Of a stretch of DNA of 64,000 bases, positions 2,712 to 53,760 are shown in pieces. The DNA is from Dehalococcoidales bacterium (GTDB lineage: Bacteria > Chloroflexota > Dehalococcoidia > Dehalococcoidales > W693). Made by a program: the position numbers and the translations under genes. The stretch is from contig DAOUDM010000035.1 of NCBI GenBank assembly GCA_034431095.1, positions 844-64,843 on the forward strand, written 5' to 3'. The notes beneath the pieces are model-generated. The model was not told the DNA's origin and ran no database searches. It saw nothing but the letters and a program-made list of their open reading frames with translations. Every line of letters starts with the position of its first letter. Within the stretch, counting starts at the first letter, position 1.

Positions 2712-3675
2712 GCCCGGGAACAACGTCCATATCCAGCCCGTCTGTCATGCCCGCCTGGAGGCGGAAGTAGCCGCAGGCGGCTACCATCGCCGCATTGTCG
2801 GTGCACAGTATCGGCTCGGGTATCAGCACAGGTACCGGCGATTCATCCGATAGGCGCTGTCGCAGGCGCCGGTTGGCGGCAACGCCGCCGGAAAGCAGAA
2901 CCTGCTTTATCCGATGCTGTCTGGCGGCAGCTATCGTTTTAGCGACCAGCACATCTACAATCGCTTCCTGAAAGCTGGCGGCGGCATCAGCTGTATTATC
3001 GACTTTACCCGTCTCCACCAGTCTGAACAGGGCTGTCTTAACGCCACTGAAGCTGAAGTCGCTGGTGCCTTTCAACCAGGCGCGCGGTAGCTCAATTGAG
3101 GCGGTACCTTTCTCGGCCGCCTGGTCAATGGCGGGACCGCCGGGGTATCCCAGCCCCAGTATGCGGGCGGCTTTGTCGAAGGCTTCACCGGCGGCGTCGT
3201 CCCGCGTTCGCCCAAGTACCACATAGTCCCCGTGGTCTCGCATCAGCACCAGGTCGCTGTGCCCGCCGGAGACGATGAGGCAGAGCAGGGGGAACTCGGG
3301 TTTGCGGTCGGCGAGCCAGTTGGCGTAGATGTGGGCTTCGAGGTGGTTGACACCGGTGATGGACAACCCCTGGACAGTGGCAATGGCTTTGGCAACACTG
3401 ACCCCCACCAGAAGTGAGCCAGCAAGACCGGGCCCTTTGGTAACGGCGATGCCATCCAGGTCTTGCCAGCCGACATTACCCCTGTCCATCGCCTGCTGGA
3501 TGATGGGGATAATAGCCAGTATGTGCTGTCTTGAAGCGACCTCGGGGACGATGCCTCCGTAGCGGGCGTGCAACTCCACCTGGGAGGCAATCTCGTTGGA
3601 CAGAACGCTGACCCCGTCCTCGACTACGGCGGCGGCTGTTTCATCGCAGGAGGTCTCGATGCCCAGTATCTTCAC
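2698..3675 (-). CDS. tsaD: tRNA N6-adenosine threonylcarbamoyltransferase TsaD
   Basis: 325 aa. [19 protein letters not shown]-terminus, with HLEAHIYA and [11 protein letters not shown] motifs of the Kae1/TsaD family. Confidence 0.95.
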
Positions 3676-3744
3676 ATTTAGAATTATAGCACAGGGAAAG
3701 CCGGCTATTTATTAATATAACGTTTTAGCTATATTGTAAACAAC

Positions 3745-3863
3745 CTATCCCCCTACCCCTTCCCTTGTTAGGGAAGGGGGGTAAGTTTGGGAGGGGGCTT
3801 TGCCCCTCCCAAAAAACCTTCCCCCTCTCCTATCTAGGAGAGGGGGATACAGGGGGTGAGGTG
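3745..3863. repeat. G/C-rich hairpin-module cluster, locus A
   Basis: Three consecutive hairpins: CCCCTTCCC-TTGTTA-GGGAAGGGG (3756-3779), GGGAGGGGGC-TTT-GCCCCTCCC (3789-3810) and CCCCCTCTCC-TATCTA-GGAGAGGGGG (3821-3846). A tail ATACAGGGGGTGAGG follows. The same modules recur at loci B-F. Confidence 0.9.
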
Positions 3864-4087
3864 TTCCTCTATAAAAGAGAGCAAAGCCATTCTTTTTGAC
3901 ACGACTGTTAGCCAAGGATATTACGATTTTGCGTAGAAAGTATTGCTTAGTTCCGTTTCTATTTGTCTCCTTCTTCATAATAATAGTCTGTCAAAAGCTG
4001 CCAATGCCTGCTAGTGATTTGACAAAATAAGTAACACTATGTTACCTTAAGTACATGGTGTAACACTAAGGAAGGCAATGTAACCAC

Positions 4088-4488: not shown

Positions 4489-4520
4489 AGGAGTGGTATT
4501 AAATACCACTCCTCGTTTGT
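4489..4520 (+). terminator. Intrinsic-terminator-like hairpin after the HTH gene
   Basis: AGGAGTGGTAT-TAA-ATACCACTCCT forms an 11-bp perfect stem (4489-4513), followed by CGTTTGTT. It lies 5 nt after the stop codon. Confidence 0.6.
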
Positions 4521-4524
4521 TATC

Positions 4525-4607
4525 GGCGACGTGCTGGAATTGGCATACAGGCCGAGCTGTCAACTCGGTGGCCTGAAGCCTTGGGAGTTCGAGTCTCCCC
4601 GTCGCCA
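4525..4607 (+). tRNA. Class II tRNA (long variable arm, A73) whose anticodon loop reads CUGUCAA, giving anticodon GUC (Asp); isotype anomalous
   Basis: Manual cloverleaf follows. Acceptor GGCGACG/CGTCGCC, 7 bp and perfect. D arm CTG-GAATTGGCATA-CAG. Anticodon stem CCGAG/CTCGG with loop C-T-GTC-A-A (anticodon 4559-4561). Variable arm of 14 nt, T-GGC-CTGAA-GCC-TT. T arm GGGAG-TTCGAGT-CTCCC. Discriminator A, followed by CCG, so CCA is not fully encoded. Confidence 0.85.
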
Positions 4608-4671
4608 CCGTATTATATGTTATGGCTTCCTTTTAGTTTTGTCAATACTAATCTAGATAATATTTTGCTTT

Positions 4672-4700
4672 TTGACACGCTTATTATCCAATGCTATTAT
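4672..4700 (+). promoter_or_regulatory. Candidate promoter for the CNNM/CorC-family gene
   Basis: TTGACA (4672-4677), a 17-nt spacer, then TATTAT (4695-4700). It lies about 70 nt upstream of the ATG at 4769. Confidence 0.45.
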
Positions 4701-4768
4701 GGTTTATAGGTAGCTTCAAGGCTGCCGGTAAGCTCTATATGGTAAGAGTAAAAGTGAGGTGAGGCGGT

Positions 4769-6052
4769 ATGTCTGTTGAAACACTGTATCTGGTGTTTCT
4801 TTTTATTTGTCTTGTTCTATCAGCCTTCTTCTCCAGTTCGGAGACGGCCTTTATTTCTCTGGAGAGGTTTCGTGTCCAGCATATGGTCGAGACCAAGGTC
4901 AGGGGGGCAAAGCGGGTCGCCAAGATGCTGGAGCGGCCGGACAGGTTTCTGTCCACCATCCTGCTGGGCAATAACCTGGTTAACACTGCCGCCGTTGCCA
5001 TAGCTACTATACTGGCGATAAATATCTGGGGGCAGGATACGGGTGTTATCATCGCCACCTTCGGCATGGCGATGTTACTTTTGATATTTGCCGAGACCGT
5101 GCCCAAGACCTTCGCCAACCGCCACGCTGAAAGGCTGGCTCTGCTATTTGTGCGCCCTATAGAGATAATCTCCTGGATTTTCTCTCCGGTGGTGGTGGTT
5201 TTAAGCTGGCTGGTATCGGGTGTGACCAGGCTGACTGGCGGAACGCCGGTGCCCAAGTCACTGGTCAGCGATGAGGAAATCCGCACCATGATTATGGTGG
5301 GGCACAAGGAGGGCACGGTGGAAAAGGCGGAGGCTGAGATGCTGAATGCCGTTTTTGAGTTTGGCGATAGACCTGTCAGCGAGATGCTGGTGCCCCGACC
5401 CGAGGTCGTCGGCATCGAGAAAGGCGAGACGCTGGCAGGGTTCCTGGCTATCTATTCCGAGTCTCCCATCTCCCGGTTCCCGGTGTACGAGGAGAATATG
5501 GACAACGTGGTCGGTGTCCTGTCTATCAAGGATGTGCTGATGGCTCTGGCGAAGGGGGCGGTAACAAATGACAGCCCCATCGATGAGCTTATCCGCCCGG
5601 CCTATTTCACCCCGGAGACAAAACGTATCAGCGAGCTCTTTGCCGAGATGCGGGACAAGAACTACCGTATGGCTATCGTCGTTGACGAATACGGTGGTAC
5701 CGCCGGCATCGTCAGCCTGAGCCGCCTGATGGAGGAGATAGTCGGCCCGGTGGGGGACGAACTGGTAGCGGCCGAGAAAGAATACGAGTCGATAGATGAG
5801 TATACCTTTCAGGTTGACGGTGGTATGCGCATTGAGGAAGCCAATGAGGAGCTGGGACTGGAATTGCCCGAGGGCGATTATGAGACTATCGCTGGCTTTG
5901 TTCTCCATCTGCTGGGGCGTATCCCCAAACAGGGGAAACAATTGAAGTACCAGGGCTTGAAGATGGTCATCACCAAGATGAAGGGGCATAAGATAGAGGA
6001 AATCCTGCTGACCAAGGAAAAGGGAAAGAAGGATGAATCGGCTGCGGGTTAG
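4769..6052 (+). CDS. CNNM/HlyC-CorC family transporter-associated protein (DUF21 + CBS pair + CorC_HlyC)
   Basis: 427 aa. The N-terminal half has multiple TM segments, followed by the CBS-pair region (ISRFPVYEENMDNVVGVLSIKDV...YRMAIVVDEYGGTAGIVS). The C-terminal transporter-associated domain is YTFQVDGGMRIEEANEELGLELPEGDYETIAGFV. Confidence 0.9.
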   Translation: MSVETLYLVFLFICLVLSAFFSSSETAFISLERFRVQHMVETKVRGAKRVAKMLERPDRFLSTILLGNNLVNTAAVAIATILAINIWGQDTGVIIATFGMAMLLLIFAETVPKTFANRHAERLALLFVRPIEIISWIFSPVVVVLSWLVSGVTRLTGGTPVPKSLVSDEEIRTMIMVGHKEGTVEKAEAEMLNAVFEFGDRPVSEMLVPRPEVVGIEKGETLAGFLAIYSESPISRFPVYEENMDNVVGVLSIKDVLMALAKGAVTNDSPIDELIRPAYFTPETKRISELFAEMRDKNYRMAIVVDEYGGTAGIVSLSRLMEEIVGPVGDELVAAEKEYESIDEYTFQVDGGMRIEEANEELGLELPEGDYETIAGFVLHLLGRIPKQGKQLKYQGLKMVITKMKGHKIEEILLTKEKGKKDESAAG

Positions 6053-6671
6053 ATTCAAGCGGGGGGATAGTGTCAAGTTCATCTCCCACCTGGATATAAT
6101 AAGACTATGGCATAGGGCTTTGCGCCGTGCTGGAATAGACCTCGCCTATTCGGAGGGATTCAATCCCCATCCGCGGATAGCCTTAGCCGCTCCTCTGGCT
6201 CTGGGCATAACCAGCGACGCAGAGCTTATGGATATCTTTATTAACCGGCATATCTCGCCGCATTCTTTTACCGCTCTGGTCGGTCGGCAACTGCCCCCGG
6301 GTATTGAGATACTACAGGTGTGTCTTGTGGCGCCAACTCTGCCGGCGTTGCAATCGCAGGTTCGTTTTGCCGAATATATTGTGGAAGTAGGGGGGGCGGC
6401 TGGTGATGTGGCGGCGGCCATTGCTTCCCTGCTGGATAAAGAGCACCTGCCTTGGCAGCACCAGCGGGATACCGGCACTAGGAGCTACGACCTGAGACCT
6501 CTGATTGATGACCTGTGGCTGGCTAGCTGGCATGACGACGGCGGTGCAATTGGCATGCGGCTGCGCTGTGGCAGCAATGGTTCTGGGAGGCCGGAGCAGG
6601 TGGTAAAAGCCCTGGGTCTGGGCGAGCCCGGCGCCATTCACCGTACCAGGCTGATCCTGGAAACGAGTTGA
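6033..6671 (+). CDS. DUF2344 / TIGR03936-type radical-SAM-associated protein
   Basis: 212 aa. RVRFKRGDSVKFISHLDIIRLWHRALRRAGIDLAYSEGFNPHPRIALAAPLALG matches my recollection of the DUF2344 signature. It overlaps the upstream gene by 20 nt. Confidence 0.75.
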   Translation: MNRLRVRFKRGDSVKFISHLDIIRLWHRALRRAGIDLAYSEGFNPHPRIALAAPLALGITSDAELMDIFINRHISPHSFTALVGRQLPPGIEILQVCLVAPTLPALQSQVRFAEYIVEVGGAAGDVAAAIASLLDKEHLPWQHQRDTGTRSYDLRPLIDDLWLASWHDDGGAIGMRLRCGSNGSGRPEQVVKALGLGEPGAIHRTRLILETS

Positions 6672-7834
6672 ACGAATTGAATAGCTCCATCCTGGATAAA
6701 GATACCAAGGTAGAGCCGGTGCTGGAACCGGAAAGGCAGGAGAAGGCGAGGCAATATGCCCATACCAATCGTTGCCTGACCATCGCCGAGCTGGTACTGG
6801 CTGGCATAGCTCTGGTTTTACTGATATTCGGTGGCTTTTCGGAAAAGATTACCGGTTATTTTAATCTGCCATTGGTTGCTACGGCTGCCATTTATATTAT
6901 CATACTCATAGCGGTTTACGGGCTTATTTCGACACCGATAAGCTGTTATCGCGGCTTCGTTCTGCCCCGGCGTTACGGGCTGAGCAACCAGGGATTCGCC
7001 GGCTGGCTCGGTGATTATATTAAGGCTGGTATTCTAGCTGTGATATTGGGCACTGGTATTGTTGCCGCCAGCTATTGGTTTATAAGTACTTTGCCTCAGG
7101 TCTGGTGGGTGCTTGCCTGGGGATTGCTGGTACTGATTAGCCTGATACTAAGTATCTTAATGCCAGTAGTTCTGGTGCCGCTTTTCTATAAGACGAAACC
7201 CATCGAAGATGAAGCTCTGAAAGGAAGGTTCAGGCGGCTGGCAGAGAAAGCTAACGCCGATATCAAAGATTTTTATACCCTGGAATTCAGTAGTAAGGGT
7301 TCAACAGCTAATGCTGCAATGATGGGAACGGGCAAGACAAAACGTATCGCTTTAAGCGATACGTTACTGGAAGGATATACCCCCGAAGAGATAGAGGTTA
7401 TCATTGCCCATGAATTGGGGCATTATAAAAACAAGGATTTTATACGCTTATTTCTTTTTCAGGTTGTTCTTATGTTTGTATATTTTGGGCTTACGCATAT
7501 CATTACGATAGCTCTGGTAGCGCCGTTGGGGCTTGGCGGTATCAGCGATGTGGCGGCACTGCCTCTGATGATTCTGGTTTTTGCCATTTTAAGCCTGCTG
7601 CTTGTGCCCTTTTCCAATGCTATCGTACGGCGTTTGGAGCATGAGGCTGATGATTTTGCCCTTCATCTGACAGGACGGCCACAGGCATTCATAACCATGA
7701 TGACAAAACTTACCGACCAGAACCTGGCCGAAGCCGAGCCCAACCGCTGGGTCGAGCGTTTGTTTAGTGACCACCCCAGCTACAATAGTCGGCTGGAGCA
7801 CGCCCGTTGCTATTTGGAAAAGCCTGGTGAATAG
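6668..7834 (+). CDS. M48-family (Ste24/HtpX-like) zinc metallopeptidase, membrane-bound
   Basis: 388 aa with several TM helices and the HEXXH motif IAHELGHYKNKD. The TTG start overlaps the upstream stop (TTGA). Confidence 0.85.
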   Translation: MNELNSSILDKDTKVEPVLEPERQEKARQYAHTNRCLTIAELVLAGIALVLLIFGGFSEKITGYFNLPLVATAAIYIIILIAVYGLISTPISCYRGFVLPRRYGLSNQGFAGWLGDYIKAGILAVILGTGIVAASYWFISTLPQVWWVLAWGLLVLISLILSILMPVVLVPLFYKTKPIEDEALKGRFRRLAEKANADIKDFYTLEFSSKGSTANAAMMGTGKTKRIALSDTLLEGYTPEEIEVIIAHELGHYKNKDFIRLFLFQVVLMFVYFGLTHIITIALVAPLGLGGISDVAALPLMILVFAILSLLLVPFSNAIVRRLEHEADDFALHLTGRPQAFITMMTKLTDQNLAEAEPNRWVERLFSDHPSYNSRLEHARCYLEKPGE

Positions 7835-33429: not shown

Positions 33430-33488
33430 AATTATCAGCGTAATTCTATCACGAGCCAGCTTTCAGGGTCAATTCTTTATCAGAACAA

Positions 33489-33825
33489 CCTCACCCCCTT
33501 AATCCCCCTCTCCTTACAAGGAGAGGGGGAGATAGAAGAAAGAGGGGATTTGCCCCTCTTAAACTCCCTTTTACGGGTGATAATCAGGAGATAGAGGGGG
33601 GAGACTATAATGGAGGGACTGCGCCCCTCCAAACCTCCCGCTTTTATAAATGCGAAGCCCCTCTTAGACTCCCATTTAATTATTATGCCAAGTTAAAGAG
33701 TGCCCGAAAAAAGCAAGAGTTATATGATGGATATAAGAACAGGGGAGTATGAGGGGGCGGTAGACCCCTCAAATATAAATTCCCCTTCCCCTTATCAAGG
33801 GGAAGGGGATAAAGGGGATAGGGTT
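33489..33825. repeat. G/C-rich hairpin-module cluster, locus C (largest)
   Basis: It starts with CCTCACCCCCT-TAAT, then CCCCCTCTCC-TTACAA-GGAGAGGGGG (33504-33529). Next are AGAGGGG-ATTTG-CCCCTCT (33541-33559) and GGAGGG-ACTGCGC-CCCTCC plus AAACCTCCCGC (33612-33641). These are followed by GAGGGG-N8-CCCCTC (33751-33770) and TCCCCTTCCCC-N7-GGGGAAGGGGA (33781-33809). The tail is TAAAGGGGATAGGGTT. ORF 33700..33882 is a translation artefact of these repeats. Confidence 0.9.
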
Positions 33826-39818: not shown

Positions 39819-40115
39819 CCTCACTCCCTTTAATCCCCTCTCCTTGTAAGGAGAGGGGAAGTTTAGTTTGGAGGGACGCAGTCCCTCCAAACCTCCCGCT
39901 ATGTCCTACCCCTAGAAAAATAGGGATAGGCATACCATAAAAACTGGGGTAGACACGCTACAGAAAAGCAGGGGAGTTGGGGGGCTGCCGCCCCTTAAAT
40001 AAAACATTCCCTCTCCCTTTGGCAAAGGGAGAGGGATAAAGGGTGAGGGATTTATAATAATTTAGCCCCCTCTTTAACTTATATTCCCCTTCCCTAACAA
40101 GGAAAGGGGTCAGGG
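39819..40115. repeat. G/C-rich hairpin-module cluster, locus D
   Basis: It starts with CCTCACTCCCTT-TAAT, then CCCCTCTCCTT-GT-AAGGAGAGGGG (39835-39858). Next are GGAGGGAC-GCA-GTCCCTCC plus AAACCTCCCGC (39870-39899) and CCTACCCCTA-N6-TAGGGATAGG (39905-39930). These are followed by GGGGC-TGCC-GCCCC (39981-39994) and TCCCTCTCCCTTTG-G-CAAAGGGAGAGGGA (40008-40036) with the tail TAAAGGGTGAGGGATTT. The last hairpin is CCCCTTCCC-TAACAA-GGAAAGGGG (40086-40109). ORF 39638..39940 is an artefact. Confidence 0.9.
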
Positions 40116-40213
40116 GATATGTTGTTTTTATCAAAAAGGAAAAGTTACCGCTGCATTCATTCTGTTGCCATAGACCTCCTGTTCTCTTATAATGAGACCT
40201 CAGGACTTAAAGT

Positions 40214-44388: not shown

Positions 44389-44440
44389 TCACCTCCTACG
44401 GATAGGATTATAGCATCCATTTATGCTGAAAATAAACAAG

Positions 44441-44512
44441 TGGCAGCGATTGGATTTGAACCAACGACCAAGGGCTTATGAGTCCCCTGCTCTGCCACTG
44501 AGCTACGCTGCC
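44441..44512 (-). tRNA. tRNA with CAU anticodon (elongator Met, or lysidine-dependent Ile2)
   Basis: The reverse strand reads GGCAGCGTAGCTCAGTGGCAGAGCAGGGGACTCATAAGCCCTTGGTCGTTGGTTCAAATCCAATCGCTGCCA. It folds with a 7-bp acceptor, a GCTC/GAGC D stem, loop CTCATAA (anticodon = rc of 44478-44480), and T arm GTTGG-TTCAAAT-CCAAT. The G1:C72 pair argues against an initiator. No CCA is encoded. The body resembles my recollection of E. coli ileX at least as much as metT. Confidence 0.9.
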
Positions 44513-53555: not shown

Positions 53556-53760
53556 CCCCTCCCCCTCTCCTGTGAGGAGAGGGGGATTAAGGGGGTGAGG
53601 TTGTTGTGTTAATAAAAGAGGCCAGGAGGGGATAATTACCGCCTCCGCTCTTTATTATCTATTCCCACCCGCCGCCCTTTTAAGGAAGAGGGATACAGGG
53701 GGAGAGCCCCACTGCCCTAAGGAAAAGGGTATTAGGATGAGAATCCCCCACCCTTAAGGA
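53556..53760. repeat. G/C-rich hairpin-module cluster, locus E
   Basis: CCCCCTCTCCT-GTG-AGGAGAGGGGG (53561-53585) carries the tail ATTAAGGGGGTGAGG. A 40-nt module, TCTTTATTATCTATTCCCACCCGCCGCCCTTTTAAGGAAG (53649-53688), follows. Further G-rich units (GGGATACAGGGGGAGAG, CCCTAAGGAAAAGGG, CCCCCACCCTTAAGGAAGG) complete the cluster. Confidence 0.85.

Follow-up and report, generated by a model that had tools for sequence, protein, structure and literature searches.

A leucine-type tRNA body with an aspartate anticodon in a transposase-linked gene cassette family of Dehalococcoidia

Few natural tRNAs have an anticodon at odds with their amino-acid identity, and those that do bear on changes of the genetic code, on the tolerance and use of mistranslation, and on the design of orthogonal or missense-suppressor tRNAs. 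The closest described systems are the bacterial allo-tRNAs and the nev-tRNAs of nematodes. Here we describe a class II tRNA with a tRNA-Leu-type body and the Asp anticodon GUC, encoded in a stretch of 64,000 nt from a Dehalococcoidales bacterium (GCA_034431095.1, contig DAOUDM010000035.1, positions 844 to 64,843 of the forward strand), which we call the window; it belongs to a metagenome scaffold of 121 kb (ENA ERZ23486252). The tRNA lies in a small cassette, and loci used for comparison are designated by L numbers.

Allo-tRNAs are class II tRNAs mined from bacterial metagenomes that combine an anticodon-blind synthetase identity with 35 codons, including GUC and ochre (PMC5389517, PMC7609411). 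Some of them decode non-cognate codons as Ser or Ala in E. coli; others appear to have no activity (PMC5389517). They resemble the cassette tRNAs in their anticodon-blind identity, in a highly varied non-cognate anticodon (13 anticodons in 18 tRNAs in our family), in the long variable arm and in their frequent location near toxin-antitoxin or transposon-related genes, which in the cassettes encode a transposase and a helix-turn-helix (HTH) protein. The resemblance is one of function and not of membership. The acceptor/T arrangement of allo-tRNAs is 8/4 or 9/3, giving a 12-bp branch, whereas that of the window tRNA is 7/5 with all pairs supported by covariation. Moreover, allo-tRNAs have the G73 or U73 of serine identity or the G3:U70 of alanine identity, whereas the window tRNA has A73, C3-G70 and a Leu D-loop and core; one sibling (L162) does have an allo-tRNA-like G3·U70, although its body is class I and 7/5. 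Allo-tRNAs are hosted by Acidobacteria, Clostridia and Proteobacteria, the cassettes by Dehalococcoidia, and the order of regulator gene, hairpin, tRNA and DDE transposase is a feature of the cassette family that is undescribed for allo-tRNAs.

The nematode nev-tRNAs are Leu-derived class II tRNAs with Gly (CCC) or Ile (UAU) anticodons, which accept no amino acid but Leu, are weakly expressed and translate GGG into Leu in vitro (PMC3333845). They share the mechanism that we propose for the window tRNA, in which leucyl-tRNA synthetase (LeuRS) ignores the anticodon. Unlike the cassette tRNAs, they are eukaryotic, nematode-specific, chromosomal, limited to two anticodon types and free of a regulator gene, hairpin or transposase. 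Bacterial mistranslating tRNAs with a mismatch of anticodon and amino acid have reportedly been found in Streptomyces, where tRNA-ProA and a dedicated synthetase, ProRS-x, are said to provide regulated mistranslation. That type is a class I, Pro-type tRNA with a dedicated synthetase paralogue, whereas the cassette tRNAs have no linked dedicated synthetase. Phage suppressor tRNAs are a further case of non-standard decoding on mobile DNA, and accompany a recoded phage genome. One cassette tRNA (L151, anticodon UUA) is like them in that it would read the UAA stop codon. The cassettes differ from phage suppressors as chromosomal insertions of about 1-3 kb with a transposase, aimed mostly at sense codons. 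None was present in the viral collection that we scanned with the family pattern given below: the only hit (L082) was a tRNA-Leu(UAA) of the ordinary kind, preceded by a terminator that resembles that of the family, and the family is thus not evidently phage-borne. No description of this tRNA cassette family was found in the literature that we searched.

The window tRNA and its family

ARAGORN calls an 85-nt tRNA-Asp(gtc) at the locus (Table 1). The Rfam tRNA model matches positions 4525-4607 with 52.3 bits (E = 1.3e-10; gathering score 29) and agrees with ARAGORN on the anticodon loop. The tRNA has a perfect 7-bp acceptor stem (GGCGACG/CGUCGCC), a D stem of 3 bp with the loop GAAUUGGCAUA, the anticodon stem CCGAG/CUCGG with the 7-nt loop CUGUCAA, a variable arm of 14 nt with a GGC/GCC stem, and a T stem of 5 bp. 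The anticodon is formed by G4559, U4560 and C4561. A73 lies at 4607 and is followed by an encoded CC, the terminal A not being encoded. A first-pass annotation, made from the letters alone, had drawn this cloverleaf with a GUC anticodon; all its structural details are confirmed in the sequence, and the covariance model places no other anticodon. In an Rfam run over the full window at the gathering threshold, the tRNA was lost to the speed filters, and the score given above comes from a search of the region alone. The tRNA of L140 was lost likewise, so that long-arm tRNAs can drop out at this step.

We found at least 18 distinct tRNAs from Dehalococcoidia metagenomes in one fixed layout, which form a family of small mobile gene cassettes. 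Each layout comprises a small gene for a DNA-binding protein, a terminator hairpin GAGGAGTGGTG…CACCACTCCTC, the tRNA, a conserved block, and a DDE transposase of the IS1182/IS5-like type or its remnants; the tRNA starts 10-13 nt past the hairpin across the family. Members were reached by three routes. The first was synteny, which gave L006 and L045; these share with the window a tRNA-Leu-like body, an upstream hairpin GAGGAGTGGT…ACCACTCCTC and a downstream TTTGTCAA motif, and the anticodon arms of the three are unrelated to each other. The second was a pattern that is indifferent to the anticodon (hairpin arm, D-loop, T arm and CACC) and matched 66 metagenome loci. Those with the full hairpin all had non-Leu anticodons (UGC, ACC twice, AGC twice, GCC, GGA and UGU), and those without it were all ordinary tRNA-Leu genes (about 56 tRNAs). 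The third route was independent of the tRNA: among 56 homologues of the HTH protein of the window, nine HTH_17 genes were fetched, and all nine are followed by the hairpin and a tRNA 25-50 nt past the stop codon. The tRNAs sampled in this way score 55-63 bits with Rfam.

The 18 tRNAs carry the anticodons GUC, GUA, UGG, AGG, AGC, UGC, ACC, GCC, GGA, UGU, UUA, UAA and UUG, many of which are one base step apart, as in GUA–GUC–GCC–ACC–AGC–UGC–UGU/UGG. The anticodon is thus a freely varying slot on a scaffold whose identity does not depend on it, and not a mutated Tyr anticodon. It had been pointed out that the loop is one substitution away from that of tRNA-Tyr; a GUA sibling does exist (L149), but with anticodons varying so widely the proximity is incidental. 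The chromosomal contexts of the cassettes are tsaD/CNNM, prfA, leuS, rpsP, endonuclease V, uvrD, cinA and ychF.

Selection on the fold is evident in an alignment of 13 distinct class II members. Cloverleaf cells are paired in 97.7%, vs 41-54% with the partners slid, and 16 of the 23 pairs are changed on both sides, giving 53 compensatory cells. All five anticodon-stem pairs covary, and the observed values were reached by none of 500 shuffles. The D, anticodon and variable arms of the window tRNA and L155 are identical, and their acceptor and T stems differ by compensatory changes. Moreover, the decoding loop is conserved over the 18 tRNAs, with Y32 in 18/18, U33 in 16/18 and a purine at 37 in 18/18 (A in 17). 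This argues that the anticodon arm is used.

A decaying copy of tRNA-Leu or tRNA-Tyr and a base-call error had been named as alternatives, to which a faulty assembly of the anticodon may be added. The window is a metagenome scaffold and gave a single copy at first, and the lack of an encoded terminal A sets the tRNA apart from most genuine tRNA-Leu genes of relatives. Against this, the stems are perfect and strongly covarying, and the score is well above the Rfam threshold. Four independent JGI assemblies (L155-L158) repeat the anticodon arm base for base, and two more lineages (L159 and L166/L167) have GUC as well. Hence C4561 is not a base-call error, and the covariation of the fold together with the conserved decoding loop excludes a pseudogene as well; we leave these explanations a very small residual probability. 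Among the alternatives raised in the first pass, a tRNA borne by a mobile element was the right one; the hairpin, the repressor/operator module, the link to a transposase and the existence of a family had escaped it. We are highly confident that the window tRNA is a selected tRNA with a Leu-type body and an Asp anticodon, carried by a mobile cassette of a family that is new to the literature searched.

Table 1. Features of the window cassette and anticodons of family members
Locus	Feature	Position	Strand	Evidence or remark
Window	Left copy of the CNNM promoter block CTTTTTGACACGACTGTTAGCCAAGGATATTACGATTT, left insertion junction	3892..3929	+	Direct repeat
Window	Cassette promoter/putative operator	4019..4087	+	-35 TTGACA 4019-4024; palindrome GTAACActaTGTTAC 4031-4045 in the spacer
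Window	HTH_17 gene, 131 aa, excisionase/MerR-type winged helix	4088..4483	+	Pfam HTH_17 5e-12, TIGR01764; ends TAATAA
Window	Terminator-like hairpin AGGAGTGGTAttaaaTACCACTCCT with T-rich tail	4489..4513	+	Ends 11 nt before tRNA position 1
Window	Class II (7/5) tRNA, tRNA-Leu-type body	4525..4609	+	ARAGORN, Rfam, tRNA-Leu alignment, covariation
Window	Remnant of the tRNA-transposase link block, TTTGTCAA at 4638-4645	4610..4667	+	Downstream alignment, 14 members
Window	Right copy of the promoter block, right insertion junction	4668..4705	+	Direct repeat, promoter scan
Window, L155-158, L159, L166/167	tRNA, anticodon GUC			Leu-type, class II
L149	tRNA, anticodon GUA			Leu-type, class II
L161	tRNA, anticodon AGG			Leu-type, class II
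L151-154	tRNA, anticodon UUA, would read UAA stop			Class I, 75 nt
L162-165	tRNA, anticodon UAA (Leu)			Class I, 74 nt; G3·U70 and A73, the alanine identity set
L168/169	tRNA, anticodon UUG			Class I, 73 nt; C1-G72 and A73

Insertion site, transposase and regulator

We compared the window with 80 loci that are syntenic for the CNNM gene; by these relatives it belongs to the Dehalococcoidales. In the closest relatives (L002, L003 and L005; 86-92% identity) the gap between tsaD and this gene is 80-145 nt and holds no tRNA, and in the window it is about 1.1 kb. The window cassette is a low-GC insertion of about 0.8 kb between the two genes, from which the transposase has been lost. A cassette occupies this site in two of the 80 loci (3/81 counting the window), namely L006 (UGG) and L045 (AGC), both with long tRNAs, and the others have nothing there. 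In the window, HTH gene, hairpin and tRNA are bracketed by a 38-nt direct repeat with 79% identity between the copies and a spacing of 776 nt. The repeated block is single-copy between tsaD and the CNNM gene in L002, the closest cassette-free relative, and the window and L002 are continuous downstream of the right junction. According to a promoter scan, the right copy holds the CNNM promoter TTGACA-17-TATTAT (4672-4700; 11/12 matches, extended TG). The loop sequence UGUCAA is complementary to the -35 element TTGACA at the insertion site, and a role of the anticodon loop as a guide to the target was therefore considered. We rejected it as a general rule, since other anticodons differ and the flanking motifs are constant.

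In intact relatives (L140, L149 and L151-154), the conserved block 3' of the tRNA runs for about 74 nt to the start of a 336-aa DDE transposase. The protein is IS1182/IS5-like and stays under every curated NCBIfam cut-off (IS1182, 127 bits vs 270). Truncated remnants of it are present in L159, L112, L143, L146 and L155, and an alignment of the downstream regions of 14 members showed that only the TTTGTCAA piece is left in the window, L006, L045 and L085. A tblastn search over the whole window returned no homologue of the transposase, and with neither a transposase gene nor more than this short remnant the window does not hold an IS1182/IS5 insertion sequence. The homology of L140, L149 and L151 goes no further than the stop codon of the transposase. 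In the intact relatives no terminal inverted repeats were identified, and no repeat matches the block on the tRNA side; L151 has a perfect 17-bp inverted repeat (3164-3180 / 6306-6322) that was not seen in other loci.

Sampling was also done from the side of the transposase, where 474 homologues fall nearly all into single-contig clusters, and three loci were examined. All three have a small gene and a hairpin upstream of the transposase, and the tRNA slot is variable: it is degenerate in L170 and deleted in L174, and L175 combines another hairpin with a GUU tRNA.

The regulator gene of the window had been noted as a low-GC, excisionase-like neighbour, and this description holds: the gene lies in a stretch of 500 nt with a GC content of 0.37 and has the HTH_17 and TIGR01764 matches listed in Table 1. 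The N-terminal 45 aa are nearly invariant among its 56 homologues. An AlphaFold model (pLDDT 84.7) consists of a winged helix of the MerR/excisionase type, a long helix and a small β unit, and its fold matches are RacA, Xis, BldC and RdfS; a fold search for the C-terminal unit returned nothing past the MerR/Xis-type winged helix and long helix. The palindrome in the promoter spacer consists of GAACA-type half-sites written GTAACA-N2-4-TGTTAC, and extra half-sites lie near the start codon (GTAACA, 4060-4065; TGTAAC, 4079-4084). TTGACA together with GTAACA-N2-4-TGTTAC is kept 5' of the HTH_17 genes in L162, L155, L149, L151 and L159, and in a looser form in others. The palindrome is a putative operator, and the 131-aa protein is presumed to be the autoregulator (repressor) of the cassette. 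A small divergent HTH_17 gene of 55-75 aa accompanies many cassettes and is absent from the window. In seven members the upstream gene encodes an unrelated coiled-coil protein with no Pfam or NCBIfam match, and the same hairpin is kept. In a terminator scan this hairpin scores as an intrinsic terminator, with 11 pairs and the tail CGTTTGTTAT. Its sequence is kept in all members whatever the type of the upstream gene, and in all fetched DNA it occurs only beside these tRNAs.

The regulator gene beside the L151 tRNA ends in the double stop TAATAA. Two lineages have a DUF4145 gene that runs antisense to the transposase gene and into its 3' end (L151, 5614-6222, minus strand; L170, 3996-4601, minus strand). 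The window has no such gene. Among the PADLOC defence models, the DUF4145 gene has a weak match to PD-T7-4 (anti-phage; E = 2e-6), and all other matches were generic HTH ones (MAD1).

Amino-acid identity and the proposed role of the tRNA

In E. coli, the determinants for LeuRS are A73, U8:A14, A15-U48, G18G19, A20a and contacts in the D- and T-loops, and the anticodon and the sequence of the variable arm are dispensable (PMC9976931). The window tRNA, which reads U8 G9 … G13 A14 A15 U16 U17 G18 G19 C A U A C, with a U preceding the T stem and the T-loop UUCGAGU, has A73, U8:A14, A15-U48, G18G19, A20a and, in the T-loop, U54, U55, C56 and A58 (TTCGA). The long variable arm and the 3-bp D stem give it the class II shape of tRNA-Leu. 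In an alignment with tRNA-Leu genes of Dehalococcoidales, its D-loop is one base off the genuine GAAUUGGCAGAC, its T-loop is that of Leu(UAA), and its variable arm ends in the same CCUU. The likeness to tRNA-Leu remarked on in the first pass is thus borne out, both by the complete set of E. coli determinants and by the ordinary tRNAs that fit the same body pattern, which are all tRNA-Leu. A73 is invariant in the 13 aligned class II members, and in the window, L006, L045, L149, L155, L159, L161 and L166, which were sampled by synteny or by the HTH gene, it is unbiased by the search pattern.

A Leu isoacceptor would have the anticodon NAG or YAA. None of the 15 Leu-type bodies with complete E. 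coli LeuRS determinants has a Leu anticodon, and the window tRNA, with GUC, is therefore not an ordinary tRNA-Leu isoacceptor. The sole Leu anticodon of the family (UAA) sits on an alanine-type body with G3·U70 and A73. G3:U70 is missing from the members with Ala anticodons, and the one tRNA with a Ser anticodon carries A73. The mismatch of identity and anticodon thus looks systematic. Alanyl-tRNA synthetase is likewise anticodon-blind (PMC11028032). From these identity elements we infer that the window tRNA is leucylated. The family may then consist of "identity-swapped" tRNAs, in which an anticodon-blind scaffold (Leu, and Ala in one lineage) would be combined with a freely drifting non-cognate anticodon.

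Charging through the anticodon, or by tyrosyl-tRNA synthetase (TyrRS), would give a different result: either an oddly shaped but faithful tRNA-Asp, or Tyr inserted at the Asp codons GAC and GAU (GAY). G34, U35 and C36 are the main anticodon determinants of aspartyl-tRNA synthetase (AspRS), and A73, G34, U35 and a long variable arm are elements for TyrRS (PMC9976931). Moreover, the D-loop signature AAAYUGG also occurs in two genuine phage-type tRNA-Tyr genes of the fetched loci, and one sibling has GUA (L149). However, beyond the anticodon the window tRNA has A73, C10 and A38 instead of the Asp elements G73, G10 and C38, and its body, with a long variable arm, is class II. Position 36 is C and not the A of tRNA-Tyr, and D-loop and core are closest to tRNA-Leu, with A15 and U48 present. 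The mean body identity is 0.68 to tRNA-Leu against about 0.6 to tRNA-Ser and tRNA-Tyr, a comparison that discriminates only weakly. Neither could charging by the anticodon explain a family with Ala anticodons lacking G3:U70, a Ser anticodon with A73 and one stop-codon reader. We consider this explanation improbable, and Leu appears to be the better-supported identity than Tyr for both the GUC and the GUA members.

The mechanism that we propose for the window tRNA is low-level expression gated by the regulator, charging by LeuRS and insertion of Leu at GAY codons, and we hold it, with moderate confidence, to be the likeliest explanation. An intact unit comprises, in this order, the small divergent HTH gene where there is one, a presumably autoregulated promoter/operator, the gene of the DNA-binding protein, the hairpin, the tRNA, about 74 nt, and the DDE transposase gene. 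As judged from the layout, transcription of the tRNA would depend entirely on the repressor promoter and on read-through of the hairpin, because the hairpin leaves no room for a separate tRNA promoter; its level would thus be low and tied to the regulator. The transcript would be released by RNase P and 3' trimming and would then need the CCA-adding enzyme, since the gene encodes only ACC. By E. coli identity rules, LeuRS should charge it with leucine, because the bacterial leucine identity set is complete and LeuRS ignores the anticodon. The loop, with C32, U33, GUC and A37, is competent for decoding and would read GAC and GAU, placing Leu for Asp at low frequency.

A reassignment of GAY from Asp to Leu in the organism, with the window tRNA as the new cognate, has nothing beyond the tRNA in its favour and is refuted by codon alignments. 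In 89 alignments of GAY codons of the CNNM and TsaD genes of the window with cassette-free L002, L003 and L005, the residues opposite are D in 69 cases, E in 10, N in 8, G in 1, S in 1 and L in none. Also, the cassette is sporadic among the syntenic loci, and its siblings target many different codons.

Several points weigh against the mechanism proposed here. Avoidance of the targeted codons, sought as a sign of self-protection, is absent from the genes of the cassette, GAY making up 4-8% against a background of 6%; the test tells little, but misreading would on this showing be either very weak or not occurring. C33 in L085 and L151 could weaken decoding. In the L170 variant (2815-2935), the tRNA-like sequence has a degenerate T-loop, CUCGACA, and is rejected by ARAGORN and Rfam, and in L174 (2455-3060) the tRNA is deleted and the hairpin joined directly to the transposase leader; the tRNA is thus dispensable for the rest of the unit. 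A plain terminator would not need a hairpin sequence so well conserved, and the region may therefore have a further role. The LeuRS identity rules of Dehalococcoidia are extrapolated from E. coli and Aquifex, and the search pattern imposes D-loop and A73 on the eight members derived from it. Finally, TyrRS may to some extent recognise the GUC and GUA members through their long arm, A73, G34 and U35, and AspRS may do so for those with GUC.

Some of these points would be expected if the tRNA-shaped RNA served the mobile element and not translation, as punctuation at which RNase P/Z cleavage parts the mRNAs of regulator and transposase, as an insulator against read-through, or with the hairpin as a site of recognition or recombination, the anticodon being left to drift. 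The place of the tRNA is always that between regulator gene and transposase, and its junctions to the conserved hairpin and the conserved downstream block are fixed. The stems of the tRNA vary more than the sequence of the hairpin, tRNA halves ("top" and "bottom") appear to have been swapped between members, and the degenerate and tRNA-less variants as well as the unavoided codons fit such a role. A non-translational role has likewise been suggested for the allo-tRNA(UAU) group (PMC5389517). More speculatively, the hairpin and the variable tRNA might be an RNA cofactor of the DDE transposase. However, the acceptor/T minihelix would suffice as a processing signal, whereas the anticodon stem is compensated in all its pairs and Y32, U33 and R37 are kept. 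Had the family drifted neutrally from a tRNA-Leu ancestor, a few Leu anticodons would be expected to survive, which the Leu-type bodies lack altogether. Moreover, tRNA and regulator are intact after loss of the transposase in the window and several other loci, and the tRNA is thus maintained without the gene that it would supposedly serve. We consider a role confined to the element rather unlikely, though it is the main rival of decoding.

If the window tRNA decodes as proposed, cell or element might gain by it in several ways: it could act as a toxin or defence under regulation, diversify the proteome under stress, or benefit the transposon. Going further, and into what we hold to be unlikely, the family could be a mobile transposase-linked device: a programmable mis-decoding tRNA, made of a Leu or Ala scaffold and any of many sense or stop anticodons, would be held off by a MerR/excisionase-type repressor and a terminator until a trigger (phage infection, stress or loss of the repressor) released it to corrupt translation of the chosen codon. 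Such a device would be of a kind so far undescribed: a toxin or defence effector made of RNA, or else a switch of proteome diversity that is itself regulated. The packaging with regulator, terminator and transposase suggests that cells or elements treat the tRNA as dangerous but useful cargo. The family adds to the described mismatched tRNAs a canonical 7/5 bacterial tRNA-Leu scaffold, and one of tRNA-Ala, that takes at least 13 anticodons by single-base steps and keeps a loop competent for decoding. With less than 1 kb, the cassette can be cloned and lends itself to asking whether regulated mistranslation works as a toxin, for defence or for adaptation.

Surroundings of the cassette and further observations

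The gene order around the cassette is groES, a macro-domain gene, tsaD, the 131-aa HTH gene, the tRNA, the CNNM/CBS transporter gene, DUF2344, an M48 peptidase gene and tilS. The GC content falls at the HTH gene to 0.37 (over 500 nt) against about 0.55. The only other tRNA that ARAGORN and Rfam place in the window is an ordinary tRNA-Met (44440-44512). Just 5' of the cassette, positions 3739-3875 form a G/C-rich block with several short palindromes, among them a perfect 13-bp inverted repeat (3820-3847). The block is a dispersed repeat that resembles repetitive extragenic palindromes or miniature inverted-repeat transposable elements. It is found in more than 15 Dehalococcoidales loci and, as partial copies, at 40086-40126, 33488-33514 and 53575-53601 of the window.

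Two further cassettes, a GUC tRNA in L167 (1556-1638) and a UUG tRNA in L168 (1235-1307), lie on other scaffolds of the sample from which the window comes (ERZ23486252). The GUC tRNA of L155 (4533-4617; the same in L156-L158) stands directly 5' of leuS (4803-7256; TIGR00396, 1058 bits). As a candidate for a dedicated synthetase this gene was rejected, being a standard leuS that adjoins the cassette in one lineage only; the adjacency is probably coincidental, if striking for a predicted LeuRS substrate.

The tRNA of L162 (3366-3439; the same in L163-L165), with the body of the Ala set and the Leu anticodon UAA, is the mirror image of the mismatch in the window; if charged according to its identity set, it would place Ala at UUA and UUG codons. 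The UUA tRNA of L151 (4471-4545; the same in L152-L154) has its acceptor and T arms in common with the class II tRNA of L086, and the half with the D, anticodon and variable regions differs. In L045, the top of the hairpin, TGGTGTGTTAGCACCA (4936-4951), is almost the same as the variable arm of the adjoining tRNA, TGGTGTGTAAGCACCA (5015-5030).

Standard pipelines would label the cassette tRNAs as tRNA-Asp, tRNA-Gly, tRNA-Ala and so forth, or as "Sup", and would thereby miscount the tRNA complements of metagenome-assembled genomes of Dehalococcoidia. The tRNAs of L006 (1149-1233, UGG) and L161 (1034-1121, AGG) have proline anticodons followed by A37. Genuine tRNA-Pro typically has G37, the site of m1G37, and A37 could in principle favour frameshifting at CCN codons.

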